Assembly: GCA_965208325.1 (NCBI GenBank)
Contig: OZ242326.1
Location: forward strand, 576,001 to 640,000
Direction: 5' to 3'
Source of the DNA: Candidatus Poribacteria bacterium
Lineage (GTDB): Bacteria; Poribacteria; WGA-4E; PCPOR2b
Length of the DNA stretch: 64,000 nt
Shown: positions 47,390 to 63,267 of the stretch, piece after piece
Layout: each line of letters starts with the position of its first letter
Position numbering within the stretch: the first letter of the stretch is position 1
Position numbers and translations under genes: made by a program
Notes under the pieces: generated by a model
The model's input: the letters and a program-made list of their open reading frames with translations, nothing else
The model's database searches: none
Told to the model about the DNA's origin: nothing

Positions 47390-49147
47390 CTACGATTCAA
47401 CGACGGACGCCAATACCTCATTTAACAGCCCTTCGTTTTTCCGCTCCAATGCCAGCAATTCCGCGGCGATTTCATCAAGAGACCGAAGCGGCGTGTATTT
47501 GTAGAAATAACGATTGAAGTTGATTTCGTAGCCGACCTTGTCCTTCTTCCTGTCCAGCCAACTGTCCGGCAGATGCGGTTTGACCTCCCGCTGGTAGTAA
47601 TCTTCGATGTCCTCACTGAGCGGTACCCGCTCGTAGTCTCGCCGTTTAGAATCGGGTTTAGGATTGCCCTTCTTGTCTCTGACGACCACCTGCTTCTCCT
47701 CGCCCTGATTTTTCTTCGTTTCGACCAGCGGCCGCTCAACCGTGACTTTGGTGTAGCCGAAGAACCCGTTCTCGTAGATTTTGCAGTGTTCGTTCTCCTC
47801 GAAATTGGCGTAGAGCGCCGCCAAACGACGGATATGTTCGTCAGAGATGAAAACGCTCTTGTCGCCCAGGTTTCGTTTCATCTTGTCGAAAAAACTCGCA
47901 CCGTTAATGAGTTGTATCATGCCGTGCCGTTTCTCTGATTTTTGGTTCGTCAATATCCAGATGTAGGTTGCGATACTAGTGTTGAAGAACAGCTTGTCGG
48001 GCAGCGCAACAATGCATTCCAGCCAGTCGTTCTCAATAATCCAGCGTCGAATTTCGCTCTCGCCGCTGCCGGCATCGCCTGTGAATAGCGGAGAACCATT
48101 AAAGACAATGCCGATCCGGCTGCCGCGGAATTCCATCTTGGAGAGCATGTGCTGCAGAAATAGCAACGCTCCGTCAGAGGTGCGCGGCGTACCAACAGCG
48201 AACCTGCCGCTTGGGTTCTCGGCGTCCGCTTTAACCGCCCCTTCCTCGGACTTCCAACTGACGCCGAACGGCGGATTCGTAATCATATAGTCGAAGCGCT
48301 GCGCTTGAAATTTGTCAGCCGATAGCGAGGAGCCGAGTCGAATTGAATCCGGATCCTCGCCGGTAATCAGCATGTCCGATTTGCAGATAGCGTAGGTCTG
48401 CGCATTCAGTTCTTGACCGAGCAGGCGAAGTTCGGCTGAGCGGTTGATATGTTCTAGGAAATATTCTTTGCCGATGGTCAACATGCCGCCCGTTCCGCAG
48501 CACGGATCGAAGATGCTCCGGACAACGCCCTGTCCCTGCAAATTCTCGCGGTGTTCGGCGAATAGCAGCGAGACCAGCAGCCGTACGACGTCACGCGGCG
48601 TGTAGTGTTCCCCGCTGGTTTCGTTGGACATCTCTGAGAATCGGCGGAGCAACTCCTCAAACACCTGACCCATGATGTGGTTGTCCACTTTGTTGGGGTG
48701 CAAGTCCACTTCAGTGAATTTGCTGCAGAAGATGAACAGCCGATCGTTCCGGTCCAACCGTTCAATAAACCGGTCTAGGTTGAAGTTTTCGATGATGTCC
48801 CGTACATCCGCACTGAATCCGTTCAGGTAATTCTGGAAGTTATGGCGTATGTTGACAGGTTCATCTTTCAGCCGCGCCAGGTCGTATTGGGAGGTGTTGT
48901 AGAATTGGGTGCCGGTGGCTTTCAAGATAATTGGCGGCAGCCTGTCTTCGGACACCTTGTCCTTGAATTGGTTGTAGGCGTTGATGGCTCTCTTTTTTCG
49001 TTCGCCTTCCTCCAAGATGCAGTCCAACCGCCGCAGCACCAGAAACGGCAGCGTCACATCGCCGTATTCGTGCGGCTTGAACAATCCGCGCAGCACATCG
49101 TCGGCAACATTCCAAACCAAATTTGCGAGTTCTTGATAGTTTGCCAT
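47390..49147 (-). CDS. hsdM: type I restriction-modification methyltransferase subunit
   Basis: GEHYTPRDVV, DPCCGTGGM, NPPF, FNGSPLF, LF.NT.I.TYIW. Confidence 0.96.
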   Translation of the reverse strand: MANYQELANLVWNVADDVLRGLFKPHEYGDVTLPFLVLRRLDCILEEGERKKRAINAYNQFKDKVSEDRLPPIILKATGTQFYNTSQYDLARLKDEPVNIRHNFQNYLNGFSADVRDIIENFNLDRFIERLDRNDRLFIFCSKFTEVDLHPNKVDNHIMGQVFEELLRRFSEMSNETSGEHYTPRDVVRLLVSLLFAEHRENLQGQGVVRSIFDPCCGTGGMLTIGKEYFLEHINRSAELRLLGQELNAQTYAICKSDMLITGEDPDSIRLGSSLSADKFQAQRFDYMITNPPFGVSWKSEEGAVKADAENPSGRFAVGTPRTSDGALLFLQHMLSKMEFRGSRIGIVFNGSPLFTGDAGSGESEIRRWIIENDWLECIVALPDKLFFNTSIATYIWILTNQKSEKRHGMIQLINGASFFDKMKRNLGDKSVFISDEHIRRLAALYANFEENEHCKIYENGFFGYTKVTVERPLVETKKNQGEEKQVVVRDKKGNPKPDSKRRDYERVPLSEDIEDYYQREVKPHLPDSWLDRKKDKVGYEINFNRYFYKYTPLRSLDEIAAELLALERKNEGLLNEVLASVVES

Positions 49148-49374: not shown

Positions 49375-50367
49375 TTGCCACGAATCACACAGAAATCGTC
49401 AAAGACCGGCCAAAGATGGCTCATCTACCTTGTAGAAGACGTCAGCATGTTGCGGTACATTGCGGGCTTCATCTTAGCTGTTATCTTCTTTGGTCTTTCC
49501 TATGCTCTACTTACACCATCAGGTCACGGCATTGGACGAAATCTCGAACCAATTCCCGGTAACACATTTTGGGACACATTCTTGACCGGCATATACTTTA
49601 GCGTCGTCACAATTTCCTCGTTGGGATACGGTCACATGCATCCGATGGGACTCTCGAAGGCACTAGCCTCCGTAGAAGTCCTCATAGGTCTCGCAGTGAT
49701 AGGTATAATGATTGCTAAAGTGACTTCGCAACGCTTGTCATACCACGTATCACGTCTGTTTAGTTCCGATGCTCAAAAACGGCTTGAAGATATCGCCGAA
49801 AAATTTAAGGCATCAGAAGCCAATCTTAAGGCAATTATGCCGAAACTAGTGGGTGCCTACCAAAGTACCCCAGGTCAGGCTACTCAACCCGCCGAAAACA
49901 AAAGCAAATTAATTTCTGACTTCCGAAGGATCATCGGCGACCTCAATTCAGAATGCGTTAAGTTGCGTGATTATTTTTCAAGCGAAATTGAACAGGGCAA
50001 ATACTTCCAGAGCGTGCCGGTCACTGCTGTAACACAGGTCGGTAATGCAGTTGATGAGCCATTTTGGATTCTGGGCCAACTCATCAAGAGTTTGCCACCG
50101 CAATCAACGTTGGAAATTTTTGATTTGTACAATAGAAAGGCGGTATCCGAAGCGATCTCCTCCCAAAAAAAGGTGTGCGACTTGGTAAATAACTATGCAA
50201 CTGAGCAGGGCACCCGCGATGCATTCCAGCGTATTAAGGAGCACTGTGATGGAATTCCCACAAGTTACTTCGCGGTTCCAGAATCACAACCCGACCAAGC
50301 GCCTCAAGATACTGACGAACCTCAGGGATCAACAGGGATGGGCAATCAAGAAACAAATATTTCATAA
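49375..50367 (+). CDS. 2-TM potassium-channel-like protein (Ion_trans_2) with uncharacterised C-terminal domain
   Basis: TM1, pore YFSVVTISSLGYGHMHP, TM2 A..E.LIG; alternative start 49447. Confidence 0.8.
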   Translation: MPRITQKSSKTGQRWLIYLVEDVSMLRYIAGFILAVIFFGLSYALLTPSGHGIGRNLEPIPGNTFWDTFLTGIYFSVVTISSLGYGHMHPMGLSKALASVEVLIGLAVIGIMIAKVTSQRLSYHVSRLFSSDAQKRLEDIAEKFKASEANLKAIMPKLVGAYQSTPGQATQPAENKSKLISDFRRIIGDLNSECVKLRDYFSSEIEQGKYFQSVPVTAVTQVGNAVDEPFWILGQLIKSLPPQSTLEIFDLYNRKAVSEAISSQKKVCDLVNNYATEQGTRDAFQRIKEHCDGIPTSYFAVPESQPDQAPQDTDEPQGSTGMGNQETNIS

Positions 50368-50399: not shown

Positions 50400-50756
50400 A
50401 TGCAATTAAAGTGGATTCAGTGTCAGGGCGATGTATGGTGCAAGCTCAATGCGGTAAATTTGGACCATGAGCATTTCAACAATATGCATGGAGTCTATGT
50501 AATATGGCACGGGGGTACGGACCCCAAAGTAGTTTACGTGGGCCAGGGAATCATCAAGGATCGTATAATTGAACACCGGACGGATCCACAGATTCAAGCT
50601 TATGCTGATCTAGATCTCTATGTGACTTGGGCAGCAGTGCCCAAGGAGTACCGTGCCGCCGTAGAGTCTTACTTAGCCAACACATGGAGCCCAATAGTAA
50701 GTTTACGCCATCCGCAAACGTCTCCTCCTATGCAAGTAAATTCGCCATGGAAGTAA
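50400..50756 (+). CDS. small GIY-YIG-like nuclease-fold protein
   Basis: GVYVIW...VVYVGQG.IKDRI.EH...E..L motif order; GGAGG RBS. Confidence 0.65.
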   Translation: MQLKWIQCQGDVWCKLNAVNLDHEHFNNMHGVYVIWHGGTDPKVVYVGQGIIKDRIIEHRTDPQIQAYADLDLYVTWAAVPKEYRAAVESYLANTWSPIVSLRHPQTSPPMQVNSPWK

Positions 50757-50956: not shown

Positions 50957-53923
50957 TCACAAAGCCGATGGCGCCGACGGTTGGCGATAATCCTGATACA
51001 GCAACCGCTTTAGGTCGGCATTAACGTCCGGTTTTGATAGTTTGTTGTAAAGGTCCACCTTGTCTTGCACAAAGCCTAACAAAATGGCATCAAACACTTG
51101 ATTAAACTTGTAGCGTCTGTTGCTATCTGTGTTGTCACCCTCAAACACCTGCCGGAGCGACTCGTCGGCGTGCACCTTTTGGCGGATGGTCTCAATGTCA
51201 ACCTTGTCTTCCTGGGTAAAGTCCGTCTGATACGCGTCATTCAGCGTCTGGATGATATTGGAGAGTAGGTCGTGTTCCGGGTCTTTGCGCGAGGACTCAT
51301 CGCCGCCGATACCGTTAACCTCGCTATCTCCTGGGTCGAGATACAGCGTTTGGCTATCATGAATCTTCTGCACACGGAACGAATCCAAGTCCACGGACGC
51401 CAAGACATCGCTTACATCTTCGTATTCCCGTTTCGGCAGTTTCTTATTGAGGCTGCGGCAGAAAACGTAGAGCTTCTCCAACGCGGGGTCGGTGAACGTA
51501 ATCAACTGAGAGATGTATCCGTAACCCCGGATGTAGCTCTGCAATGCGGAACGAAAATCCTCGCGCGCTTCGCTCTCCAACTCCGACCATCTCTTAACGA
51601 CGCCGTCTAGGATGGGTTGCAGCCGTTCATTGGGTTGTTTTTCGTCATAGAAGATAAGGCAAAAGCCGTTGACCGTATCGAGGTCGAATAGCTCAAAATC
51701 TTCCAAACGCCGCTGCAGGTCATACAGCCGATTCGGGTCGGTATCCTCCTCAAGGATGGTCGCCTCATAGTATTGCTGAAACGCATCCTGAATCTGGTCG
51801 GGTTCGTTCACGAAATCGAGCACCAGCGTCTCCGTCTTGCCGGGCGCGACGCGGTTTAAGCGGCTGAGGCTCTGGACGCATTGCAGCCCGCCCAGCCGTT
51901 TATCGACGTACATGGTTTGCAGCATCGGTTCGTCGAAACCGCTCAGGAACTTGTTCGATACGATGAGAATCCGATACTCCGGACGCTTGAAGGTGTCCGC
52001 AATCGAAACGCTCGGCGCCAGATTGTTCATACCGTTTTCCGTGTAGTCCCGCCCGACATCGGTATCGTGCACTGTGCCGCTGAACGCGACCAGACAGCCG
52101 TAATGCAGGTTCATCTCCCTCATCTGGCGGTCAAATTCCGTCTTGTACCGCACACAGTGCATGCGGGACGGCGTGATAAGCATCGCCCTTCCCTTTCCCG
52201 CAATCGTATTTGCGGTGCGCTCGACAAAATGCTCCAGGATAATCCGCGTCTTGGTCTCAATGCTGTGGGGCTGCAGGTCAACGTAGTTCGTGAGCATCCT
52301 GAGCGTCCGCCCCTTCTCATAGGCTTTATCCTCCGATACGCTCTTCACCAGTTGAAAGTAACGCTTAAAGGTGGTATAGTTCTGCAGCACGTCGAGCGTG
52401 AAACCTTCGCTAATGCTCTGACGCATCGAATATACGTGGAACGGGACGAATTTTCCGTCTTCATTCTTCTGTCCAAACAGTTCTAAGGTTTTGTTCTTGG
52501 GTGTGCCGCTGAACCCGAAATATGAGATATGATCTTGCGCTTGGCGCCGCTCCATCTCCTCAATAATTCGCGCATCCATGTCCGAAACGTCAGGTTCGTC
52601 TTCGTCCAATGCCTCGCTCTCAATGCCTTTCGAGAGCGAGACTTTGAGGTTCTTGGCGGCTTCGCCGCTCTGGGAGGAGTGGACTTCATCGACAATCACG
52701 GCGAATGTCTTGCCTTTGAGTTCGCCGATTGCCTCGGCGATTACGCTGAACTTCTGAATCGTCGAGATGATGATGTCCTTTCCGGATTCGAGGAAATTCC
52801 TGAGTTGCGCCGAGGTTTTATCCACGGAGTGCACGACGCCAGCGACCTGCTCCATCTGTTTGATTGTCGCCTGAAGTTGGCGGTCGAGCACGCGACGATC
52901 GGTCACGACGATGATGGAGTCGAAGATGCGGTCCGTGTCTTCGGGAGAACGGTACAGATGCGTGAGCAGGTGCGCCAGCCATGCAATCGAGTTCGACTTG
53001 CCGCTGCCGGTGGCGTGTTGGATGAGGTAGTTACGCCCGACGCCGTCCGCAATGACCGCCGCCTTCAATTTCCGAATTACGTCGAGTTGGTGGTATCGCG
53101 GGAAAACCAACACTGAGCGTGGCTTATCTTTGACTTCGTCGTGGTCAGGGTTGTAGACCTTGTCTGTGACCTTTTGCTCATGAATAAAGTCGCCGATGAG
53201 TTCCATCAGGTTGTCGGGCTGCAAGATGTCCTCCCACAGGTAGGCGGCTTTGTGCCCATCCGGGTTCACCGGGTTTTCGATGCCTCGGTTGTACGGAAAG
53301 AAGCGCGTGCTGCTGCCCTGTAGGTGCGTCGTCATGGAGACCTTCTCGTTACCCACCGCGAAGTGAACCAGACAGCGCCGGAATCGGAACAGCGGCTCTC
53401 TCGGATCCCGGTCGGTGCGGTACTGTTTCTCGGCGTCCGCCACCACCTGACCGGTCAGGCTGTTCTTCAGTTCCATGGTCACCAGCGGCAGACCGTTGAG
53501 GAACAGCACCATATCCAGCGATTTCTCATTTTTTTGCGAGTACTTTAACTGCCGGATCAGAGAAAACCGGTTTTGCGCGTAACGCTTCAGAAGGTCGGGG
53601 TTCATGCCGCTTGCCGGGCGGAAATAGGTCAGGTCGAAGTAACAGCCTCTATCTTTAACGCCGTGCCGCAGCACATCCAGCACGCCGCGGCGTTCGATTT
53701 GTCGGCTTATTTCGTCGAGCAGCTTCTCGGGTGTCTCCTTCTGGTATTGGCGTTCAAGTTTCTCATACGTTTCCGGCTGCGTATCCTGAATAAATTCCAG
53801 CATCTCATCGTGTATCAGGCAGAGGCGCTTATTGTAGAAGACCGGTTGCCGAGAGCGGTAGCCTGACCGATTCAGGTGCGCTTCGATATGGTCTTCAAAG
53901 TTTGTCTCGTCATATGTCGGCAC
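50957..53923 (-). CDS. hsdR: type I restriction endonuclease subunit R
   Basis: D..LFLNGLP..TMELK nuclease motif, HATGSGKS, DEVHSSQ, FSGTPK, GFDEP, QSLSRLNR. Confidence 0.96.
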   Translation of the reverse strand: MPTYDETNFEDHIEAHLNRSGYRSRQPVFYNKRLCLIHDEMLEFIQDTQPETYEKLERQYQKETPEKLLDEISRQIERRGVLDVLRHGVKDRGCYFDLTYFRPASGMNPDLLKRYAQNRFSLIRQLKYSQKNEKSLDMVLFLNGLPLVTMELKNSLTGQVVADAEKQYRTDRDPREPLFRFRRCLVHFAVGNEKVSMTTHLQGSSTRFFPYNRGIENPVNPDGHKAAYLWEDILQPDNLMELIGDFIHEQKVTDKVYNPDHDEVKDKPRSVLVFPRYHQLDVIRKLKAAVIADGVGRNYLIQHATGSGKSNSIAWLAHLLTHLYRSPEDTDRIFDSIIVVTDRRVLDRQLQATIKQMEQVAGVVHSVDKTSAQLRNFLESGKDIIISTIQKFSVIAEAIGELKGKTFAVIVDEVHSSQSGEAAKNLKVSLSKGIESEALDEDEPDVSDMDARIIEEMERRQAQDHISYFGFSGTPKNKTLELFGQKNEDGKFVPFHVYSMRQSISEGFTLDVLQNYTTFKRYFQLVKSVSEDKAYEKGRTLRMLTNYVDLQPHSIETKTRIILEHFVERTANTIAGKGRAMLITPSRMHCVRYKTEFDRQMREMNLHYGCLVAFSGTVHDTDVGRDYTENGMNNLAPSVSIADTFKRPEYRILIVSNKFLSGFDEPMLQTMYVDKRLGGLQCVQSLSRLNRVAPGKTETLVLDFVNEPDQIQDAFQQYYEATILEEDTDPNRLYDLQRRLEDFELFDLDTVNGFCLIFYDEKQPNERLQPILDGVVKRWSELESEAREDFRSALQSYIRGYGYISQLITFTDPALEKLYVFCRSLNKKLPKREYEDVSDVLASVDLDSFRVQKIHDSQTLYLDPGDSEVNGIGGDESSRKDPEHDLLSNIIQTLNDAYQTDFTQEDKVDIETIRQKVHADESLRQVFEGDNTDSNRRYKFNQVFDAILLGFVQDKVDLYNKLSKPDVNADLKRLLYQDYRQPSAPSAL

Positions 53924-53926
53924 GGG

Positions 53927-55282
53927 CTACACCTCGTTTCGGACATCTATCTTGCCCGTCACAGCATCGGAGATAAGGGATTGGCGGTATTCTTTAAGGA
54001 GTTCAATGCTTCGCTGTTCTTCGGATATTAGTTCGTCAATCTGTAAGATTTTGCGGTCGAGGTAATCGGCGATTTTGGCTTGTTCTTGAATGGATGGAAC
54101 AGGAATCGGAAAGTTCTCAACAAATTTCGTTGGCACCCGTTTCAGACCAACTGCGCTGGTCATAAAATATTTGCCCATGCTACGAAGCGGGTCATTGTGG
54201 AGGACATAATAAAGAAAAGTTGGAAACACTTTCCGCGAGACTGGACGAATGACAATGAACTCAGTTGACCCGAAGCCAACTTGGGATGCCAAATTCTTTA
54301 TGAGGACAATCTTGCCATTTTCAAAACAGGGAGTAACTTTGGCTATGAGAACGTCATTTTCCTCAAAATAAGTGTAGCCGTTTTTGAGTTGTGAATATGG
54401 AACCTTTAATTCTTGGTCAAACGTCCCATCAGTATGAACTCGCTCCATCGGAAGAAAGACCACAAGTTTATCTTTAAGGTAATGTGTTTTGGGATTGTTC
54501 TTCGACGGATTGCTAGAGCCCACATGTTTTACCTTCAAAACTTCCCAATGTGCCGGTATCTCCCCAATCCACTCCACGCCCGACGGTTTCAACTCCACAT
54601 TCGGGTTAAGCCCTTTCGTCACCGCCTGATTTATCAGTGCGGTCCGCTGTTCCTGCAGCAGTTTTTTCTTTCGCTCTTTGATGCGGATTAGCTCGTCAAT
54701 TTGACCGGTCTTGTGGTCGAGGAAGGTCACTATCTTAACTTGCTCATCTTTGGAGGATGGCATAGGGATTAGATTGGAGATATATTCTTCTACCTTGAGG
54801 TTTGGATATGTCGTTGCGGAAACCATGCGCTTTATTCGCTCTTTTGTTATGGATGAAGTCAGAAAATAATACAAAAGCTTTGGCACATACATGTCCCGAT
54901 TCGCTTTCACACGCATCAAAAAATTGCTGAATACGATACTCATGGAACGGTTGTCAATGTATCCTGCCTTTCCAGTGATTATGTTAGTCGCGGATCCGCT
55001 TGACTTTACAACAATAATGTCCCCGTCTTTCACTGAGTAATAATCATGATCGGCTTTGCTAAATGACCTAATAGGCATCTTTTCTATGAGCCAATCTCCA
55101 TCCGTCGTTAGATGTGCTGTAGTTGAAACAGGTACATCAAATTCCAGAATCCCCTGGTCCTCACCCCACACCCCGCTATTATCAATCTGCGCGACATGCT
55201 TCATCTTAACCAATTCCCAAGCCTGGGGTACGGCGCCGATCAACTCCTCACGAGTTTCTATATATTCAGGATATCTCCTCAT
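53927..55282 (-). CDS. hsdS: type I restriction-modification specificity subunit
   Basis: Two TRDs separated by conserved EQ.KI..FLD......ID.LI / KPSGVEWIGEIP.HWEV; C-terminal SLISDAVTGKIDV. Confidence 0.95.
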   Translation of the reverse strand: MRRYPEYIETREELIGAVPQAWELVKMKHVAQIDNSGVWGEDQGILEFDVPVSTTAHLTTDGDWLIEKMPIRSFSKADHDYYSVKDGDIIVVKSSGSATNIITGKAGYIDNRSMSIVFSNFLMRVKANRDMYVPKLLYYFLTSSITKERIKRMVSATTYPNLKVEEYISNLIPMPSSKDEQVKIVTFLDHKTGQIDELIRIKERKKKLLQEQRTALINQAVTKGLNPNVELKPSGVEWIGEIPAHWEVLKVKHVGSSNPSKNNPKTHYLKDKLVVFLPMERVHTDGTFDQELKVPYSQLKNGYTYFEENDVLIAKVTPCFENGKIVLIKNLASQVGFGSTEFIVIRPVSRKVFPTFLYYVLHNDPLRSMGKYFMTSAVGLKRVPTKFVENFPIPVPSIQEQAKIADYLDRKILQIDELISEEQRSIELLKEYRQSLISDAVTGKIDVRNEV

Positions 55283-55743
55283 AATCCCAACACTCCTAAT
55301 GACCTTCAAGCGAATTCCCCATGAGCATTATAGCATAATTGATATGTGCTGTCACTGCATATCAACCACAGTCCAAAATCGACGTGGCTGCAAGCACGGG
55401 TACGTTTCTTAATCTTGAGACTGGGAAAATTGATGATAGTCGGCATCCTAATATTGCTTTACAAAAAATCAAATTTGTTATACCATTGTCCCAAAATAAT
55501 CGTCTACATTATATACCGAAATTTAAAGCGGAAGGGTGAGGTATTTGGGGTTGGTGATTTACACTTACCTATTAGACCAGACAGACGAAATTCTTCACTT
55601 CACTTTTTTGAGTCGACACCCGATGCGACGGCAAGAGACAAGCGGCAGTTTTGTTCACTCGCATAAATTTCTTAGAGTCATAATGTTTGTACGCTGTCGT
55701 TTCTCAACTGAGCGACTCAAGACCAGCAGATTATTGAAATGAT

Positions 55744-56820
55744 ATGGAAAACTGTTCAGTCATAGATTTGTTTTGCGGAGCAGGTGCTCTTACACATGGG
55801 TTCGTCCAAGAGGGTTTTAATGTTGTCGCCGGACTTGATGCAGACGAAGCATGTAGATATCCATATGAAACCAACAATAACGGGGCGCAATTTATCGCAG
55901 AAGGAATTGAATTAGTTAAAGGCACTGATCTCTCAAAGCACTATCCGAAAGGCAATACAAAAATACTCGTAGGTTGTGCCCCATGCCAGCCTTACTCACC
56001 TTACAACAAGCGCAAACGGTTTCCGGAGAACAAGTGGAAATTGCTCACTAGCTTTTCTGACAGAATCTCGGAGATTAAACCGGATATTGTATCAATGGAA
56101 AATGTCCCAGATTTGGTGACTTTCAATAAAGGCAGTATTTTTCAGGACTTCGTGAAACGCTTGGAAACGGATTACATTGTTACTTCATATCCAGCAGTGT
56201 TCTGTCCCGACTTTGGCATTCCGCAACAGCGAAAACGGCTAGTTCTTTTCGCCTCCAAATTCGGCAAACTCGAACTTCTGAAAGCAACTTGCCAGCCCAG
56301 TGAATATAAGAAGATTAAAGATGTAATAGGTAACCTAGAATGGCTTGAAGCTGGCAAGACAAGTCAGAACGATCCTTATCATAAAGCAGCTGGGTTGTCG
56401 GACTTAAACCTTCAACGCATTAGAGCGTCCAAGCCCGGCGGCACATGGAGAGATTGGCCTAATGATTTGGTTGCGCGCTGTCATCAAGAAAAAAAGGGCA
56501 AAGGCTATGCGAGTGTCTACGGAAGGATGCAATGGGATGGTCTTTCCCCAACGATTACAACACAGTTCCATGGGTTTGGAAATGGAAGATATGGCCATCC
56601 TGAACAGGATCGCGCGATTTCGTTAAGGGAAGCGGCGCGACTCCAGACGTTTCCTGACAGCTATAAATTCGTTCCGCCAGATAGCCCGCATTCCGTTACG
56701 ATGATTGCGCGATTCATCGGAAACGCGGTGCCCGTTGAACTCGCTCGAATAATTGCAAAAAGCATCAAACGACACCTATTGTCTCAACGAATTACTCTAG
56801 GGGTTGAAGAGAATGCCTAA
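55744..56820 (+). CDS. dcm: DNA (cytosine-5)-methyltransferase
   Basis: DLFCGAG, GCAPCQPYS, MENV, PQQRKRL, R.ISLREAARLQTFP, GNAVP. Confidence 0.96.
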   Translation: MENCSVIDLFCGAGALTHGFVQEGFNVVAGLDADEACRYPYETNNNGAQFIAEGIELVKGTDLSKHYPKGNTKILVGCAPCQPYSPYNKRKRFPENKWKLLTSFSDRISEIKPDIVSMENVPDLVTFNKGSIFQDFVKRLETDYIVTSYPAVFCPDFGIPQQRKRLVLFASKFGKLELLKATCQPSEYKKIKDVIGNLEWLEAGKTSQNDPYHKAAGLSDLNLQRIRASKPGGTWRDWPNDLVARCHQEKKGKGYASVYGRMQWDGLSPTITTQFHGFGNGRYGHPEQDRAISLREAARLQTFPDSYKFVPPDSPHSVTMIARFIGNAVPVELARIIAKSIKRHLLSQRITLGVEENA

Positions 56821-58966
56821 ACTAAAATTCACGATTGATGCCGCGCTATTGAGAGAGCTTGGAGAAAGGCTTGTCGGTAGACCTCACATTGCATTGGCAG
56901 AATTAATTAAGAACAGTTATGACGCTGATGCAACTCAAGTAATCATTGAGTTTTCACCAGATAGCGACCAAATTAAGGTCTCTGACAATGGACACGGCAT
57001 GACGTTCGAGGAATTCAAAAACTTTTGGATGCGAATTGGAACAACTCACAAGTGGAAAAAACAGTCCCGAGGTTTTAACCGAGCCATGACCGGTTCTAAA
57101 GGAATTGGACGTTTAGCAGTCCAATTTTTGGCTACGAGGCTGGAAATCAAAACTGTTTCCAGTGACGCACGTGGCAATTGGCTTGAAGCACAAGCTAATT
57201 GGTTAGAGACCGCAAACGCTAAGGAACTTTCGGAGGCGACGGTTGAATACAATCTTAGCGGCGCAACTACGCCATTTCCGCACGGCACTTCAATAATTCT
57301 TAACGGATTAAAAGGCGAGTGGACAACTGAATCCGTTCGGAAGTTAGCCTCTGAGCTATGGTGGCTTCAGCCCCCTTTCACTTCCTCATCCTCGGATTTA
57401 ACCCATTCGAATGTTGAATTTCGAGTTGATTTTCAGGCTTCTCATCACAATTACGCCCAAGAATTTCTTAACCAAATGAACGCGATAAAGCGCATTTGGA
57501 TTGCGCGGATAGTCGGAAAGAATGTTGACGGGAAAGTCAGGCTTTCGCTAGAGTTTCCCGGTGACCAGCCAACTATTAACAAATACAACATAGCTGACTT
57601 TTCCCACAATTTGGGACAATACGACAAAAACAATAACCTCAATAACGCACATTTTGAGATTCGGATTTATAATCTGTCGGGAAGACAAAGATTTGGCATT
57701 GAGGTGAAAAAAGCTAGAAAATATTTTGAAGAACATGGAGGCGTCCACGTTTATGATGGTGGGTTTCGACTCCCTTACTACGGTTTACCGACGAGCGACT
57801 GGCTGAAATTGGAATACGATCACTCTCATCGAAAAACGGTTTCCCAATATTTTCCGAGAGAAATCCAGGTTCACAGAGCCTTAAATGATTTACCGACCCT
57901 TGGGCGCGTTCTTGGTGAGGTGAATGTAGACACGTCCCGAGAACATAATCTCAAGATTATGATTACTCGAGATCGTTTAACTGAAACTAGGGCGTATGAC
58001 GATCTCGTGTCTATTGTCCGACATGCAATTGATTGGTACGCAATCGAAACTGCTCGGCGCAAATTTGAGGCGAAAAAAAGAGAAGCGCCGCCTGAACCTA
58101 CATCGCAGAGACTTGTAAAAATTGAACAAGTCTTGGAACAGTATGAACCTGAAATTCCTAAAAACGTGTATCACGAGGTACATGAAGAAGTTCAAAAGGT
58201 AATTACAACGGTAAAGACAAATCAGGAGTTCGTTATTGAACAGATGGCGCTGCTTGCGCCGCTCGCGACGGCAGGTATTTCGGCGTTATCGTACCAGCAC
58301 GAGTTGAAAAAACAATTTGCGTTTGTTGAAAGCATAATCGACAGCATGACTGGCATTCAAACAGAAGATCGTGGACTCCGGCAGGACTTGATTTCACTAA
58401 GCGGGGATTTGAAATTGTGGCTGGAAAGAGCCAAAGCAACCAACGGTCTCTTTGACTACATAGCTGACGCTGAGAACACCAAGTTAAGGTTCAGGTTGCG
58501 AGCTAATTCGGTGATTCACGATATCGTTACACAGACGCGTTTCTTAGCACGTGACATCAAAGTTGATTTTAGTCAGCTTGAGGACGAACTGTTTTTGCCA
58601 AAGGCATCATTTGCAGAATGGGGTGCAATTTTTCAAAATATTTTTACCAACTCATTTAATGCAATGCTTGATTCGTCCGAACGCCTGCTTCATATTAGTT
58701 CACAATCCAAGCAGAAATCACGCGAGATACTTATCCAAGACACTGGACACGGTATTAACGTAGAAGAGTCAGATAGGTATTTCAATCCATTTGAGCGGGC
58801 ATCCTCTGTTTCTCCCGAACGACAAGCGCTTGGTTATGGTGGTACCGGCCTCGGTCTTACAATAGTGCGGCTGCTAGCGGACAATATCGGATGCCGGGTG
58901 CAATTCGTACCGCCGCACAGCGGGTTTAGGACAGCGTTCTCAATTCAATGGAGGGAAAGTAAATGA
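56813..58966 (+). CDS. MORC/MutL-type GHKL ATPase fused to a histidine kinase
   Basis: N-term ELIKNSYDADA, DNGHGM, GSKGIGR, HGT; C-term H-box YQHELKK, N-box QNIFTNSFNA, DTGHGI, FNPF, GTGLGL; overlaps the dcm stop. Confidence 0.88.
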   Translation: MPKLKFTIDAALLRELGERLVGRPHIALAELIKNSYDADATQVIIEFSPDSDQIKVSDNGHGMTFEEFKNFWMRIGTTHKWKKQSRGFNRAMTGSKGIGRLAVQFLATRLEIKTVSSDARGNWLEAQANWLETANAKELSEATVEYNLSGATTPFPHGTSIILNGLKGEWTTESVRKLASELWWLQPPFTSSSSDLTHSNVEFRVDFQASHHNYAQEFLNQMNAIKRIWIARIVGKNVDGKVRLSLEFPGDQPTINKYNIADFSHNLGQYDKNNNLNNAHFEIRIYNLSGRQRFGIEVKKARKYFEEHGGVHVYDGGFRLPYYGLPTSDWLKLEYDHSHRKTVSQYFPREIQVHRALNDLPTLGRVLGEVNVDTSREHNLKIMITRDRLTETRAYDDLVSIVRHAIDWYAIETARRKFEAKKREAPPEPTSQRLVKIEQVLEQYEPEIPKNVYHEVHEEVQKVITTVKTNQEFVIEQMALLAPLATAGISALSYQHELKKQFAFVESIIDSMTGIQTEDRGLRQDLISLSGDLKLWLERAKATNGLFDYIADAENTKLRFRLRANSVIHDIVTQTRFLARDIKVDFSQLEDELFLPKASFAEWGAIFQNIFTNSFNAMLDSSERLLHISSQSKQKSREILIQDTGHGINVEESDRYFNPFERASSVSPERQALGYGGTGLGLTIVRLLADNIGCRVQFVPPHSGFRTAFSIQWRESK

Positions 58967-60174
58967 AAAAGAAAATCCTGATTTATGATGATGAGCAGCA
59001 ACAAAGAGAGGTCTTCAAGACAAAATTGATGCGTGGACTGGAAAGAGCAAAAGTAGACGACGCTTTCGATGTTAAAATCATTGGTGAGGACGATCTTCAG
59101 ATCTCAATGGAAACATTGCGGGCTAGGCAGGTTGCTACTCGGGACAACGGCGAATCTTCTGATGAGACGACGCAATTTGACGAAACCTCAGTATTCATGA
59201 TTGATTACGACCTACTCAAAAGTAATGCGAAAGGATTTTTCACGGGTGAAAACCTCGCGTACAGTGTTAGATGCTTTTCAACATGCAAGATGATTGTAGG
59301 ATTGAATCAATTTGGAAGCAACCCGTTCGATTTAACGTTGAAAGGACATCCAGAATCCTTCGCTGACTTGAATCTCGGGGTGGAACAGCTTGATAATCCC
59401 GGTCTCTGGCACAGCAACTGGGGAGATTCCAGACAAGGTTTTAGACCGTGGTACTGGCCGAATTTATCGGACTCCCTGAATAATTTTGACCAGAAGTTTG
59501 AGGATGTTCAACAGAATTTGGACAAGCCTATCTGTACAGTTCTTGGGTTTAATCAAGAATTGTTCGGTACGCTACCCCGCGCCGTTGTTCAATTCTTAGG
59601 AAAAGGCAATGGGAACGATTCCACTCAAGCGACGTGTCGGGAGTTTGTCACAGAGTCCGGCAACGGTTTAAGGCCTAAAGACGCGACCATTTCAGATGTG
59701 GACGTTTTGGCAAGGGTTGGGGCAGCAAGAATCTCAAAATGGCTGGAGAGATTCGTTTTGCCGGAGCAGGACTTCCTGGTTGATGCGCCGCATTTGGTCT
59801 CCAGGTATCCGAGTCTCATTGCAAATGGCGAGACGACAATCAAGGCTTGGAACAGAACAGCGCAATTGGTGGACTATCGGGAATTGGGGCTTGTCTCCGA
59901 GGTTATAGAACGCTTTAGATTCAAAAAAGACTATTGGATTTCACGCCCTGTTTGGGTTTGGGATGAACTTCGCGAGTGTAAACGTATCAAAGAAGTATCG
60001 GAACCCTGGGGGACACCAAAACCAGAGTGGGTTTTCTGTGAAGATGCCTCGCGATTCTACAACCGTAACACCTGCCGCACTTTTTTTGCCGACACTGCGT
60101 CCCCATTCATTCGGCGATTTGCTAGGAGTTTCAAGAATGTTGATTATAGGCCTATGGTTCGGCTTTCACTGTGA
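58963..60174 (+). CDS. receiver (REC)-like domain protein with uncharacterised C-terminal region
   Basis: KILIYDDE acidic pocket and FMIDYDL phospho-acceptor-like Asp; ATGA overlap with the kinase gene. Confidence 0.7.
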   Translation: MKKKILIYDDEQQQREVFKTKLMRGLERAKVDDAFDVKIIGEDDLQISMETLRARQVATRDNGESSDETTQFDETSVFMIDYDLLKSNAKGFFTGENLAYSVRCFSTCKMIVGLNQFGSNPFDLTLKGHPESFADLNLGVEQLDNPGLWHSNWGDSRQGFRPWYWPNLSDSLNNFDQKFEDVQQNLDKPICTVLGFNQELFGTLPRAVVQFLGKGNGNDSTQATCREFVTESGNGLRPKDATISDVDVLARVGAARISKWLERFVLPEQDFLVDAPHLVSRYPSLIANGETTIKAWNRTAQLVDYRELGLVSEVIERFRFKKDYWISRPVWVWDELRECKRIKEVSEPWGTPKPEWVFCEDASRFYNRNTCRTFFADTASPFIRRFARSFKNVDYRPMVRLSL

Positions 60175-60192
60175 GTTTCGCCTAAAAACGAA

Positions 60193-60888
60193 ATGAAAAA
60201 AACTGTCACGACGTTAGAAGATATCCTGGTGCCCCTGTTTCAGATTCAAGAATCCGCTTGGGGTGAAAAGGATTTAACGCTAAAACCATCCAAACAAGCG
60301 TTGAATACTTACCATGCCATATCTGTAGTGGTACCGCCCATAACTCTTGAAGAAACTAAATTCATTTATGAACCACCTAACTACATACTGGATTATTCTC
60401 AACGTGGAAGAGTGTTATATCTTCCACCGCTCCAAAACAAAGTCTCGGACTTTGTGCCAATTCTGTCGGCATGTTGCAAAATGAGCAGAGCGAAGTGCAC
60501 TGCGAGACTCCAAGTCATGTTAGTACGTTTTAACCAGCACCCTAAACCTCTTGGCATGGGTTTTCGTCTAGAAACGCCAGAACGCGCGAATCAGAACGAC
60601 GATGCTACGACTCAAGAGGGGATCCACGACTTTCACCATGCGCAACTCATTCGGGAATTTCGTGATAATCGGCTTGACGGCGCTCTGCGAATTAGTTGCC
60701 CTTGGTGGCTACCTGTTACTCAACCCTCGTTTCCGTTGCCCGCCGAATGTCCTGTAACGTTGTTGCTCTGCCTTATTGTGACGCTGTATGGTAGAAGGTA
60801 TTATAATCAGTTCCTAGACGACCATCAAATATTCGACATCAAACGGCACCGAAAGAAACTAGATCCGTGGATAAACTGGCGAAAATAA
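60193..60888 (+). CDS. hypothetical protein, last gene of the dcm operon
   Basis: 231-aa ORF 18 bp after the REC gene; FRLE, HDFHHAQ, QPSFPLP motifs. Confidence 0.7.
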   Translation: MKKTVTTLEDILVPLFQIQESAWGEKDLTLKPSKQALNTYHAISVVVPPITLEETKFIYEPPNYILDYSQRGRVLYLPPLQNKVSDFVPILSACCKMSRAKCTARLQVMLVRFNQHPKPLGMGFRLETPERANQNDDATTQEGIHDFHHAQLIREFRDNRLDGALRISCPWWLPVTQPSFPLPAECPVTLLLCLIVTLYGRRYYNQFLDDHQIFDIKRHRKKLDPWINWRK

Positions 60889-60922: not shown

Positions 60923-61426
60923 TCAAGTTTCGCCGCACGACCGATGGATGTCATCCTCACAAATGAACTTCACTGTCACACCATTTTCACGAAGTACGTG
61001 GCGGAATTCCCACCACTGCGTGTCGGTCGCTTGCAGGATTGGCGGTTTCTCTGCATGGGCAAGCGCAACTGCGACAAATTTCCGATCTTTTGAATGAAAA
61101 CCATTCAACGCTTTATCGTCTGGAAACTCTTTAAATTCATTTTCTAAACCGTTCACAGTCGTGATCGAAACTAAGTGGCATCGTTTATCTTTGTTAATCA
61201 AGACCCAGCGAAGAAACCTATCGCCTGTACCGGGCTTACCGCTAGAGCGAAGATTACCGATGTATTCGGCGAGAATTATCCATCTATCATCAAGAACCAA
61301 TGTCTCCTCGCCACGCATGATTTTTTCAAGCTTACCGATACAGGTGTTAACGCAATTCGGAGTAGCTTGCGGTGACTCCTCTCGACCGTTGGCGACCTTC
61401 GCAACGTTTGTATCCACCACAACCAT
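60923..61426 (-). CDS. PIN-domain-like protein
   Basis: VVVDTNV, EY, DRKFVAVA, ATD acidic pattern; ATG overlaps the upstream TAA. Confidence 0.65.
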   Translation of the reverse strand: MVVVDTNVAKVANGREESPQATPNCVNTCIGKLEKIMRGEETLVLDDRWIILAEYIGNLRSSGKPGTGDRFLRWVLINKDKRCHLVSITTVNGLENEFKEFPDDKALNGFHSKDRKFVAVALAHAEKPPILQATDTQWWEFRHVLRENGVTVKFICEDDIHRSCGET

Positions 61427-62727
61427 TATTCCATCACTTTCCGCCGGTTCATTTCAGCTTTAGTCTTTTCCACTAGGTCCCCCATATCATCGCCAAAGAA
61501 GTTTTGGGGCCAATTTCGGATGTTGCCGTATTCATCAACATTGAGTCGTTCAATTTCGGAACGACCATCGTTGATTTGGCAGGAATAGAGTTCCGTGTCG
61601 TTCGTCGAAAGCTGCTCCTCGGCGATGCGGCGTGTTAAGCGGTGAAGCAGGTGCTCGCTGTGGCTTTCAAAAATTATCTGGACGTTTCGATTCTTCACGA
61701 CATCAATCAGAATGTCTGCGAGTTCTGATTGCGCTTTTGGATGTAGATGGGCTTCAGGTTGTTCAATGATAAGGATTGAGCCCTCAGGAGCGTAATAGCA
61801 TAGAACCAACACCGGCAGAACCTGGGAAACGCCAAGACCTACATCTAAAAGTTTGACTTCGAGACTGCCGTTGTATTCTGTGACATGAAATTCGTAACTC
61901 TGTTTTCTTCCTTGGACCGGGTCGAGTCGATAGGAGTCAATCAATTCCAATCGCTTTACCCATTTCTGAATCTGTTCGTCAACTGAGAGACGCCTTACTC
62001 GCGCTGAAAGCAGTGCGGAAATCATCTTTTCCCCACGCTGACCAACGTCTTTTGCATGATCGCCCTCCCAGACGTAATGGTGCCGAGGATGTTCGCGAAG
62101 AGGCCCCAAGAAATGGATCTGAGCAAATAATTTTTCGAAGTCGTTTTTACAAACTAGGAGTTCTTCCAAGCGTTCATCAAAATGGTTATCGGGGGTCATA
62201 ACGCCATAGCATCGAAATGGATTCGCATCAATCGGCTCTTCAAACGATGACGGCTTGTAAAACGCTGCATAGACGGAAACTTTGAATTTATTGTTTTCGC
62301 GCTCTCCTACTATCTTCCAGATGTCTTTCCAGCCATAATAAAACCTCTCCACTTCAGATTGCCTGGATTTTTTTTCAATTTTCGTGGTGAATGAAATCCA
62401 TTCGGTCGACAGCCATGAACTCTTCTGAGGTTTAGCCCGTTTCCAGGTAACGGAAACATCAAGCGTTAATTCCTCACTGTGCCCATGAATCATGTCATCG
62501 AAACTACCGAGGTGAACCAGCGTTTTCTTGTCACACTCATCACCTAAGTAAAGGGGTTCATTCCAATCCGATGGACGTTCCGAAGTCTGCTTGAGCATTA
62601 GCAGGACTTGCAAGATGCTGGTTTTTCCGGAGCTATTCGCGCCGAAGAATCCGGTCAATGGTGCGAACTGCAGCGCACCGGTATCTTTCCAAGACTTGAA
62701 ATTTTGGGCTCTGAGCTCGGTAATCAT
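61426..62727 (-). CDS. ABC-type (AAA_15/AAA_21) ATPase with DUF3696 C-terminus
   Basis: NFKS, GANSSGKTS, VGLGVSQVLP, IEQPEAHLHP, ESHSEH, G.I.NWP..FFG. Confidence 0.9.
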   Translation of the reverse strand: MITELRAQNFKSWKDTGALQFAPLTGFFGANSSGKTSILQVLLMLKQTSERPSDWNEPLYLGDECDKKTLVHLGSFDDMIHGHSEELTLDVSVTWKRAKPQKSSWLSTEWISFTTKIEKKSRQSEVERFYYGWKDIWKIVGERENNKFKVSVYAAFYKPSSFEEPIDANPFRCYGVMTPDNHFDERLEELLVCKNDFEKLFAQIHFLGPLREHPRHHYVWEGDHAKDVGQRGEKMISALLSARVRRLSVDEQIQKWVKRLELIDSYRLDPVQGRKQSYEFHVTEYNGSLEVKLLDVGLGVSQVLPVLVLCYYAPEGSILIIEQPEAHLHPKAQSELADILIDVVKNRNVQIIFESHSEHLLHRLTRRIAEEQLSTNDTELYSCQINDGRSEIERLNVDEYGNIRNWPQNFFGDDMGDLVEKTKAEMNRRKVME

Positions 62728-62808: not shown

Positions 62809-62891
62809 GACCTCCCCTAACCCCTCCTTGGTAAGGAGGGGAATTTTAAAGCAAAGTCCTCCCCTTTGCCAAGGGGGAGTTAGAGGGGGTC
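62809..62891. repeat. double-hairpin palindromic element at the 3' end of the DUF559 gene
   Basis: GACCTCCCCTAACCCCTCCTTGGTAAGGAGGGG...CTCCCCTTTGCCAAGGGGGAGTTAGAGGGGGTC. Confidence 0.8.
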
Positions 62892-63267
62892 AGACTCCTG
62901 ATTTCTCCATCTCCTCGACTGTGTGCCTAACGAATTCCATAACCCCGTCAAGATTTCCGCAAACTTCCGCGTTCGTAAAACGCAGAAAACGGATGCCAAA
63001 CCTCTCAATGAATTCTTGCCTTGTCAGATCATATTCACCAGCCCCGGCTTGAAAATGTGTATCACCATCAATTTCGATTGCCAGTTTTAGCGAAGGACAA
63101 TAGAAATCGACGATGTACACACCAACACTGTACTGTCTGCGGAACTTATAGCCCTGCATCTGTTTTGCACGCAACTTTGACCAAACCAAAGTTTCCGCTT
63201 CAGTCATGTTTTTCCGCAGTTTGTGTCTTTTTTCCTTCTCGCTCGTTCTATTGAAAACTCGTGTCAT
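62890..63267 (-). CDS. DUF559 (Vsr-like/PD-(D/E)xK) endonuclease domain protein
   Basis: LRKNMTEAE..W..LR, KFRRQ..VG.YIVDFYC, IEIDG..H, D..R, LRFTN. Confidence 0.93.
   Translation of the reverse strand: MTRVFNRTSEKEKRHKLRKNMTEAETLVWSKLRAKQMQGYKFRRQYSVGVYIVDFYCPSLKLAIEIDGDTHFQAGAGEYDLTRQEFIERFGIRFLRFTNAEVCGNLDGVMEFVRHTVEEMEKSGV

Follow-up and report, generated by a model that had tools for sequence, protein, structure and literature searches.

The window analyzed here is a stretch of 64,000 nucleotides from a Candidatus Poribacteria bacterium (assembly GCA_965208325.1, contig OZ242326.1, positions 576,001 to 640,000), and its positions 55744-60888 hold four genes that very probably form a defense cassette of the methylase-linked kinase-relay class. 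With somewhat less assurance, we favor the fuller reading that the cassette is a mobile anti-phage or anti-plasmid system of the methylase-linked paraMORC-kinase/receiver class, acting through the mechanism proposed below. That class brings together the HEF_HK (PF19191) and Response_reg_2 (PF19192) modules, defined by Bellieny-Rabelo, Pretorius and Moleleki (2021; PMC8011034), and Ambrosia (AbrR-AbrA-AbrB-AbrC-AbrD), described from Pseudomonas aeruginosa in a 2025 preprint (10.1101/2025.09.30.679545). The four genes are:

55744-56820, + strand: gene 1, C5 cytosine DNA methyltransferase, 358 amino acids (aa)
56813-58966, + strand: gene 2, paraMORC-like GHKL ATPase with a histidine-kinase core, 717 aa from the ATG at 56813
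58963-60174, + strand: gene 3, receiver with a C-terminal domain, 403 aa
60193-60888, + strand: gene 4, protein without a family, 231 aa

In the open reading frame (ORF) listing of the window, these plus-strand genes are co-oriented and tightly packed. Direct reading of the junctions places the ATG of gene 2 8 bp within the last codons of gene 1 (ATGCCTAA), gives a 4-bp overlap with a shared ATGA between genes 2 and 3, and leaves 18 nt between genes 3 and 4; the stop/start overlaps suggest co-translation. A TTG at 56804 is also open and would extend gene 2 to 720 aa, the public gene call being the 717-aa ATG form. Because each of the four genes has hundreds of relatives at 40-80% identity, and because pairwise ratios of nonsynonymous to synonymous substitution (dN/dS) in the cassette genes are 0.09-0.37, we regard them as real genes rather than chance ORFs. 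The sole content of the 434-bp gap 5' of gene 1 is a 106-aa ORF without a Pfam match, and a promoter and terminator scan returned counts equal to the shuffled expectation.

Gene 1 matches the Pfam family PF00145 (DNA_methylase) over aa 5-343 with an E value of 8.8e-59, the NCBIfam dcm model TIGR00675 at 132.9 bits (cut-off 100.65), and the PADLOC model MTase_II at 2.1e-88. Judged from its sequence, gene 2 joins a MutL/MORC-type ATPase to a complete histidine-kinase core of class I in one soluble protein, with the following features:

56885-57241, + strand: N-terminal GHKL ATP-binding module, HATPase_c_3 (PF13589, E 3.7e-28, aa 28-146)
58298-58300, + strand: predicted phospho-accepting histidine H496 (numbered in the 717-aa form) within the H-box YQHELKK, invariant in 15/15 relatives
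58628-58948, + strand: C-terminal catalytic ATP-binding (CA, HATPase_c) domain (PF02518, E 6e-18, aa 609-715)

The motifs of gene 2 were read from an alignment of 15 relatives belonging to five phyla. In the N-terminal module E30/N34/D37, D58-G60-G62, G94-G97-G99, and T159 are invariant, and this part of the protein gives weak matches to MutL/PMS2 N-termini. Its aa 8-182 also resemble the N-terminus of the BbrUII/HgiDII enzymes (NCBIfam NF050001, E 2.9e-28; 98.8 bits, the cut-off being 550), and the N-terminal 180 aa are also matched by two PADLOC REase_II models. The kinase boxes are invariant as well, comprising H496-E497, N609/N613, D643-T-G645-x-G647, F657/F660, and G674...G681. A profile of the alignment matched the dimerization and histidine phosphotransfer (DHp) and catalytic domains of solved kinases (FixL chimeras, CpxA, HK853, EnvZ, and AdeS), and hmmsearch aligned YQHEL onto the AHELNQ H-box of FixL (4gcz/8a7f), the matched DHp+CA stretch being aa 455-664. 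The pairing of HATPase_c_3 with HATPase_c was present in 120/120 among the gene 2 relatives listed, and the GHKL and kinase parts of gene 2 gave the sole PHROGs matches in the cassette. No sensor domain was found with Pfam, and we read the protein as soluble because its most hydrophobic 19-mer, with a Kyte-Doolittle value of 1.52, lies under the usual transmembrane threshold. Six canonical HEF_HK loci, in which the methylase has ~370 aa, the kinase 947-1001 aa, and the receiver protein 533-616 aa, were recovered from Bacteroidota, and gene 2 is homologous to their kinases, aligning over aa 21-544 at an hhalign probability of 99.9 (E 5.3e-34).

The N-terminus of gene 3 is, on its predicted structure, a receiver that keeps the metal/phosphate pocket but has an unusual switch. 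The features of the gene are:

58963-59502, + strand: N-terminal receiver (REC) fold with insertions, ~aa 1-180, from the AlphaFold2 model and structure searches
59203-59205, + strand: predicted acceptor D81, at the end of strand 3 of the model and kept in 80/82 relatives
59503-60174, + strand: conserved C-terminal domain, ~aa 181-403, about 220-230 aa; candidate output or effector domain

The AlphaFold2 model of gene 3, made with 82 relatives, has a predicted local distance difference test (pLDDT) score of 95.3 and a predicted template-modeling (pTM) score of 0.93. Foldseek returned nothing from the PDB at E <= 0.001, the top rows all being response-regulator receivers. A prefilter-free structure search gave Z scores of 8.6-7.0 over 100-149 aligned residues, with root-mean-square deviations (rmsd) mostly of 3-4 Å, and nearly all of its 50 top rows were receivers covering model residues 1 to ~175; receivers again came out on top of a viral structure library. 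As an independent test, the N-terminal 140 residues of the gene 3 family were compared by hhalign with 22 canonical receivers of the same genome, yielding a score of 37.6 (E 3.9e-6, probability 87), against no more than 14.3 for 20 column-shuffled profiles and 22.4 for the reversed profile. The published Response_reg_2 domain scored 35.8 against the same 22 receivers. The acidic pocket consists of D9 and D10 at the end of strand 1 and D81 at the end of strand 3, each kept in 80/82 relatives. In a complex prediction, gene 3 aa 1-140 and a pair of gene 2 chains (aa 455-717) scored 0.00, a value obtained without controls and carrying no weight either way.

The C-terminal domain of gene 3 contains near-invariant polar residues (D274, H277, E360, D361, S363, R385, and Y395, in 80-82 of 82 relatives) that look like those of an active site. 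It had no match in Pfam, NCBIfam, PADLOC, PHROGs, or PDB sequences and no usable named match in the ESM Atlas; whole-model structure lists were filled by receiver rows, the domain not having been searched alone. With the gene 3 profile, PDB sequences gave a chance-level match alone (PsaF, E 0.095); in the ESM Atlas the entire gene 3 fell into unnamed clusters, with a 0.87 lead to PF22563 (iREC). The family is large: a word-indexed search found 942 relatives and an exhaustive search 675 clusters at 50% identity (below 1e-30 in 474 cases), all unnamed.

These results agree with the anatomy set out in the original prediction, an earlier reading of this DNA made from sequence. It had described four co-oriented genes overlapping by 8 bp and 4 bp or set 18 bp apart, a C5 methyltransferase, a second gene with two complete GHKL modules, an intact HELKK H-box, and neither a transmembrane segment nor a classical sensor domain, and a third gene with a receiver-like start (DDE; IDYDL) and a tail, whose motifs are present and whose receiver fold is now modeled.

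The 214 relatives of gene 4 are likewise all unnamed. Its residues R125, E127, H145, H149, and Q151 are invariant. Its model (pLDDT 87.6, pTM 0.87) found a best E value of 0.92 in the PDB with Foldseek and a best Z score of 4.1 among 48,161 representative chains, with none at Z >= 5, and no HNH match was obtained with Pfam in gene 4 and 12 relatives. A single hydrophobic 19-mer (aa 180-198, Kyte-Doolittle 1.87), considered as a possible membrane segment of gene 4, lies inside a long helix of the compact model. A comparison of genes 3 and 4 with the longer published proteins led us to reject, on present evidence, the idea that the two genes are a split Response_reg_2 protein: the gene 3 C-terminus and gene 4 reached hhalign probabilities of at most 0.3 against the C-terminal 380 aa of six such proteins. 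On a Paraburkholderia plasmid (NZ_AP023177.1, 3262-8894; locus L078), a helix-turn-helix (HTH) regulator, a class I S-adenosylmethionine (SAM) methyltransferase, a sensor kinase, and hypothetical proteins of 355 aa and 225 aa follow one another in an Ambrosia-like row. The last of these matches the gene 4 profile weakly (hhalign E 0.0069, probability 5.6), and the match falls exactly on the invariant HxxxHAQL motif, a hint that gene-4-like proteins terminate both the C5 and the non-C5 versions of the class.

A one-genome-per-species scan yielded 33 loci, mostly from Candidatus Poribacteria metagenome-assembled genomes and the rest from Chloroflexota, Bacteroidota, and Acidobacteriota, in which synteny was tallied by tblastn with the four window proteins. 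The original prediction had proposed examining whether gene order is conserved across taxa, and for genes 2-4 it is: in 31/31 assessable loci gene 3 has gene 2 directly 5' of it, and in 31/31 it is followed downstream by gene 4. The same trio occurs beside a divergent dcm on a plasmid of the actinobacterial genus Mycolicibacterium. A C5 methylase adjoins the cassette in 21/30 assessable loci (20 upstream, 1 downstream), four of these enzymes being only ~30% identical to gene 1. Genes for repair of deaminated 5-methylcytosine (m5C) stand beside the cassette in 7/33 loci, four coding for Vsr (PF03852; loci L021, L025, L028, and L034) and three for a glycosylase of HhH-GPD/endonuclease III (EndIII) type, a linkage that indicates methylation of host DNA in the loci that have the methylase. 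The glycosylase genes are found in Chloroflexota (L023 8888-9613, L026 8945-9667, and L032 1295-1990 (+)) as a fifth co-oriented gene after gene 4. They code for an HhH-GPD glycosylase with the EndIII iron-sulfur motif, matched by a PADLOC "type II nicking endonuclease" model, that is probably a T:G mismatch glycosylase in the Vsr role.

The distribution of the cassette is patchy. It was found in 21/176 genomes of the window's phylum, in 0/3 other genomes of its genus, and, in Bacteroidota, in one clear and one marginal case among 301 sampled genomes; relatives of gene 2 are carried on 82 plasmid records. Campylobacter accounts for 41 plasmid records with a gene 2 relative, and those inspected are conjugative. 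On one of these, from Campylobacter jejuni (CP132133.1, 4929-9394; L079), the gene 2 relative shares ~26% identity across the N-terminal 56%, and after it come an annotated response regulator (340 aa) and a convergent dcm, another three-gene variant. Several copies of the cassette are disrupted. Gene 2 is broken by ~1.3 kb in L011 (4737-6057) and lies in two pieces in L030 (4281-4308). In L021 (8173-9860), genes 3 and 4 are separated by 1.7 kb and gene 4 has an in-frame stop, while gene 4 is split in L019 (8619-8640) and short in L010, and an insertion sequence-type integrase (rve) takes the methylase's place in L006 (3518-4366). In a fragmented assembly from the window's order (G402), the gene 3 profile has one partial and three full-length matches (contigs C432, C388, C455, and C653), and these four may represent several paralogous cassettes or mixed strains in the bin.

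The original prediction placed the cassette inside a defense island, as is confirmed by its type I restriction-modification (R-M) and HEC-03 neighbors in the window:

47390-49147, - strand: type I hsdM
49375-50367, + strand: potassium-channel-like gene (Ion_trans_2), between hsdM and hsdR/hsdS
50400-50756: ORF of 118 aa without matches, between hsdM and hsdR/hsdS
50957-53923, - strand: type I hsdR
53927-55309, - strand: type I hsdS
60923-62727, - strand: HEC-03A/B pair, convergent to gene 4 (PADLOC 2.2e-28 and 1.9e-109)
62890-63267, - strand: DUF559/Vsr-like endonuclease, beyond HEC-03

The type I R-M genes of the window are not contiguous, hsdM standing apart from hsdR/hsdS (50957-55309). Close relatives (L003-L006) have the order hsdR-hsdS, cassette, HEC-03, hsdM, and other defense genes seem to insert recurrently into the type I operon. 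Homologues of HEC-03 accompany the cassette in L002, L004, L005, L006, and L008, with an HEC-03A fragment in L003. Among the distant loci, 13/23 have at least one flanking ORF matching a PADLOC model (type III CRISPR, PrrC, Lamassu-like, HerA, Hma, or methylases), a count without a background control. Some distant loci have ordinary metabolic neighbors. PADLOC 2.0.0 named no system for genes 2-4.

In the mechanism that we propose, gene 1 would methylate cytosines of the host chromosome. Gene 2 would be a soluble dimeric sensor in which the MutL/MORC-type GHKL module, together with the middle domain, recognizes a DNA-related sign of invasion and so prompts the C-terminal kinase domain to autophosphorylate H496. 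From there the phosphoryl group would pass to D81 of the gene 3 receiver, and phosphorylation would release the gene 3 C-terminal domain, probably together with gene 4, to act on the invader. We consider a real His-to-Asp transfer more likely than not; that the gene 3 C-terminus and/or gene 4 is a direct effector rather than a transcription factor is in our view an even call. The original prediction of a phosphorelay-controlled defense system had the anatomy right and is still the best reading, although the receiver has proved atypical. Its further suggestion, R-M logic for telling self from non-self in which the MORC clamp would sense DNA lacking methylation as the self-mark, may hold, and the linked repair genes support methylation of the host; it is weakened by the methylase losses described next.

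Several observations weigh against this mechanism or against so close a tie to the published class. The usual Thr/Ser site at the end of strand 4 of the receiver is N115 in 80/82 relatives, and the conserved Lys has no clear counterpart, position 127 being R/K in 56/82; with Asn in place of Thr and the Lys not clearly placed, canonical phospho-switching is not assured. No nuclease, and no effector domain of another kind, was recognized in gene 3 or gene 4, neither of which had a match in Pfam, NCBIfam, PADLOC, or PHROGs. Gene 2 had no match to PF19191 at E <= 0.1, nor was one precomputed in the 120 relatives listed, whereas canonical proteins reach that family at 9.3e-27 and 3.8e-06. Gene 2 does have a conserved His-Glu within a helix pair, which aligns with kinases of the HisKA type. 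PF19192 was without a match in the window's genome at E <= 10 and in 0/61 gene 3 relatives at E <= 0.01, two of 82 giving weak matches (best E 0.012), and the gene 3 profile showed no similarity to the six Response_reg_2 proteins (hhalign probability 0.4). Furthermore, the C5 methylase is absent from 9/30 assessable loci, and a maximum-likelihood gene 3 tree scatters the methylase-less loci over no fewer than five places, each with its own support. Genes 2-4 of these loci are full length and under purifying selection, with dN/dS of 0.10-0.37 for pairs that include a methylase-less locus versus 0.09-0.27 for other pairs, and in two of five genomes with such loci, both large assemblies, PF00145 was found nowhere in the genome. 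Methylase-less loci L015 and L019 retain remnants of 28-30 aa, and L016 and L019 have an N4/N6 methylase on the opposite strand. The methylase was lost independently at least five times while genes 2-4 were kept intact. Since such losses occurred without decay of genes 2-4, self-protection would not rest on methylation alone, and strict R-M logic is weakened both by these losses and by Ambrosia, whose methylation is reported to be non-protective (10.1101/2025.09.30.679545).

Ambrosia also supplies the alternative that we take most seriously, albeit as an unlikely one, in which the kinase senses infection and phosphorylates gene 3, whose C-terminal domain then binds DNA and switches on transcription of the cassette, and gene 4, with or without the methylase, is the effector; in a variant, the modification made by the cassette may even be what the effector attacks, not what blocks it. 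Such gating is suggested by the REC protein of Ambrosia with its winged HTH (wHTH) domain, by reporter genes within its cluster that are induced on infection, and by the failure of AbrA methylation to protect phage (10.1101/2025.09.30.679545). An effector that needs or ignores the mark would easily explain repeated harmless loss of the methylase, and the Paraburkholderia plasmid has its HTH, SAM methylase, kinase, 355-aa, and 225-aa genes in the same order, with the weak match of the last protein to the gene 4 motif. Gene 3, however, gave no HTH or winged-helix family in Pfam or profile searches, and full-length response regulators match its model via the receiver only (template-modeling scores of 0.2-0.4, and rmsd above 10 Å when DNA-binding domains are included). 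Its C-terminus instead keeps acidic, His, Ser, and Arg residues almost unchanged, as is typical of active sites, the 434-bp upstream gap is without an XRE gene, and the Vsr and glycosylase partners at 7/33 loci point to constitutive host methylation.

Two further alternatives fare worse. A disguised ATP-dependent restriction enzyme, a multi-subunit complex with the gene 2 core and genes 3 and 4 as its parts, gene 1 as the protective methylase, and the kinase and receiver as relics without phosphotransfer, is in our estimate improbable, even though the gene 2 head resembles BbrUII/HgiDII and REase_II models, the methylase lies upstream and overlaps gene 2 as in R-M operons, deamination-repair genes are linked, and paraMORC ATPases are known R-M companions (Iyer, Abhiman and Aravind 2008; PMC2292703). 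The BbrUII match stays far below its cut-off and covers the GHKL head only, and relics would not be expected to keep the H-box His, the N, G1, F, and G2 boxes, and the receiver Asp pocket invariant or almost so, as they are here; at least five methylase losses, two of them in genomes where no C5 methylase was found, should kill a classical R-M pair. The original prediction had seen no recognizable restriction endonuclease in the four genes, and Pfam, NCBIfam, and PADLOC recognized no such family in them either, the sole signal being this sub-cut-off head match. We find it highly improbable that the cassette has no part in defense and is a cytoplasmic two-component system that ties a housekeeping or epigenetic response to DNA methylation state or to nucleotide pools. 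That notion draws on the 2021 paper, which left the role open and suggested R-M regulation or nucleoside triphosphate (NTP) sensing (PMC8011034), and on the metabolic neighbors of some distant loci. It sits poorly with a patchy cassette borne on islands and plasmids and repeatedly transferred across phyla, with close relatives that hold it between hsdS and hsdM beside HEC-03, and with a cousin, Ambrosia, that is a proven defense system (10.1101/2025.09.30.679545).

The branch represented by the window is large and compact, spans at least five phyla as well as plasmids, and is without a recognizable effector domain, which makes it a clean route to the effector of the class and to what a prokaryotic MORC-type head senses. 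The repeated loss of the methylase amounts to a natural experiment that bears on how Ambrosia-like systems avoid autoimmunity. Tentatively, and with doubts that exceed our confidence, we raise the idea that the gene 3 C-terminus and gene 4 are an effector of a new kind, switched by an atypical phosphorylated receiver, with the MORC-type clamp reading a state of the DNA such as missing m5C or a free end. The cassette would then be a compact, methylase-optional immune sensor, and Ambrosia-like N6 cassettes may have the last protein in common with it, as the weak HxxxHAQL match would have it.

The original prediction noted that comparative genomics had placed prokaryotic MORC ATPases, some fused to kinases, near R-M methylases, and it knew of no mechanistic characterization of the four-gene form. 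The layout is already published: the class had been described computationally (PMC8011034) and a cousin validated against phages (10.1101/2025.09.30.679545). Bellieny-Rabelo et al. reported 644 regions with 91.6% linkage between the HEF_HK gene and that for Response_reg_2, C5 methylases upstream, and Vsr often downstream, in a layout of C5 methyltransferase, HATPase_c_3/HEF_HK/HATPase_c protein, and Response_reg_2 protein. Their proposal, from computational work only, was a two-component-like system of the cytoplasm that is linked to R-M and derives from paraMORCs (PMC8011034). Our search of the literature on these two modules found, besides that paper and its preprint, two passing mentions only. 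The cassette shares with them the order of C5 methylase, soluble HATPase_c_3...HATPase_c protein with a His-bearing helix pair, and receiver-like protein with a tail. It likewise has a C5 methylase directly upstream (here PF00145 with the 8-bp overlap), and Vsr genes and R-M neighbors. It differs in its shorter proteins, gene 2 having 717 aa versus ~950-1000 in HEF_HK kinases and gene 3 having 403 aa versus 530-620 in Response_reg_2 proteins, and in a fourth gene that is always present here and in none of the six canonical loci.

A MutL/MORC-type GHKL head beside a C5 methylase is common to the cassette, the BbrUII/HgiDII enzymes, and the paraMORC ATPases, whereas the remainder of gene 2 is a histidine kinase and not a nuclease as in BbrUII/HgiDII. 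With Detocs (defensive two-component system; 10.1101/2023.01.24.525353), the cassette would share phage defense by a histidine kinase acting on a receiver domain fused to an effector. No Detocs family was matched here with PADLOC 2.0.0, which may not include that system. Detocs reportedly consists of a TPR-type sensor, a buffering receiver protein, and a nucleosidase effector, with no methylase and no GHKL/MORC head. Among papers on paraMORC- or Detocs-type phage defense, we found no test of the C5-methylase form. Two others have no bearing on the cassette, judged by word searches of their texts: DefensePredictor mentions HATPase and REC only in a figure legend (PMC13092281), and the paper on Vibrio cholerae WASA reports a GHKL-Shedu fusion (PMC12137116).

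Ambrosia comprises an XRE regulator, an N6 methylase, a HATPase kinase, a REC-wHTH protein, and a type IV HNH nuclease, guards P. aeruginosa against phages of two groups, is inactivated when any of its domains is mutated, the receiver Asp included, and does not behave as a conventional type II R-M system (10.1101/2025.09.30.679545). Compared by description rather than by AbrB-D sequence, the two have in common a cluster of DNA methylase, HATPase-type histidine kinase, receiver protein, and small last gene. The methylase is a C5 enzyme here and an N6-adenine enzyme in Ambrosia, the XRE/HipB-like regulator gene of Ambrosia has no equivalent in the upstream gap of the window, the wHTH output is replaced by the gene 3 C-terminal domain without a family match, and the type IV HNH endonuclease by gene 4, without HNH or other match. 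The idea of a two-component-wired R-M-like module is backed by experiment, though for a cousin assembled from other parts. Immune layouts that appear to place an R-M-like module under a bacterial two-component phosphorelay are few, and this class is among them; Ambrosia, in a preprint, is its one member tested so far. With genes 3 and 4 in no Pfam or PADLOC family, the cassette of the window is, on sequence grounds, a divergent branch of this known class.

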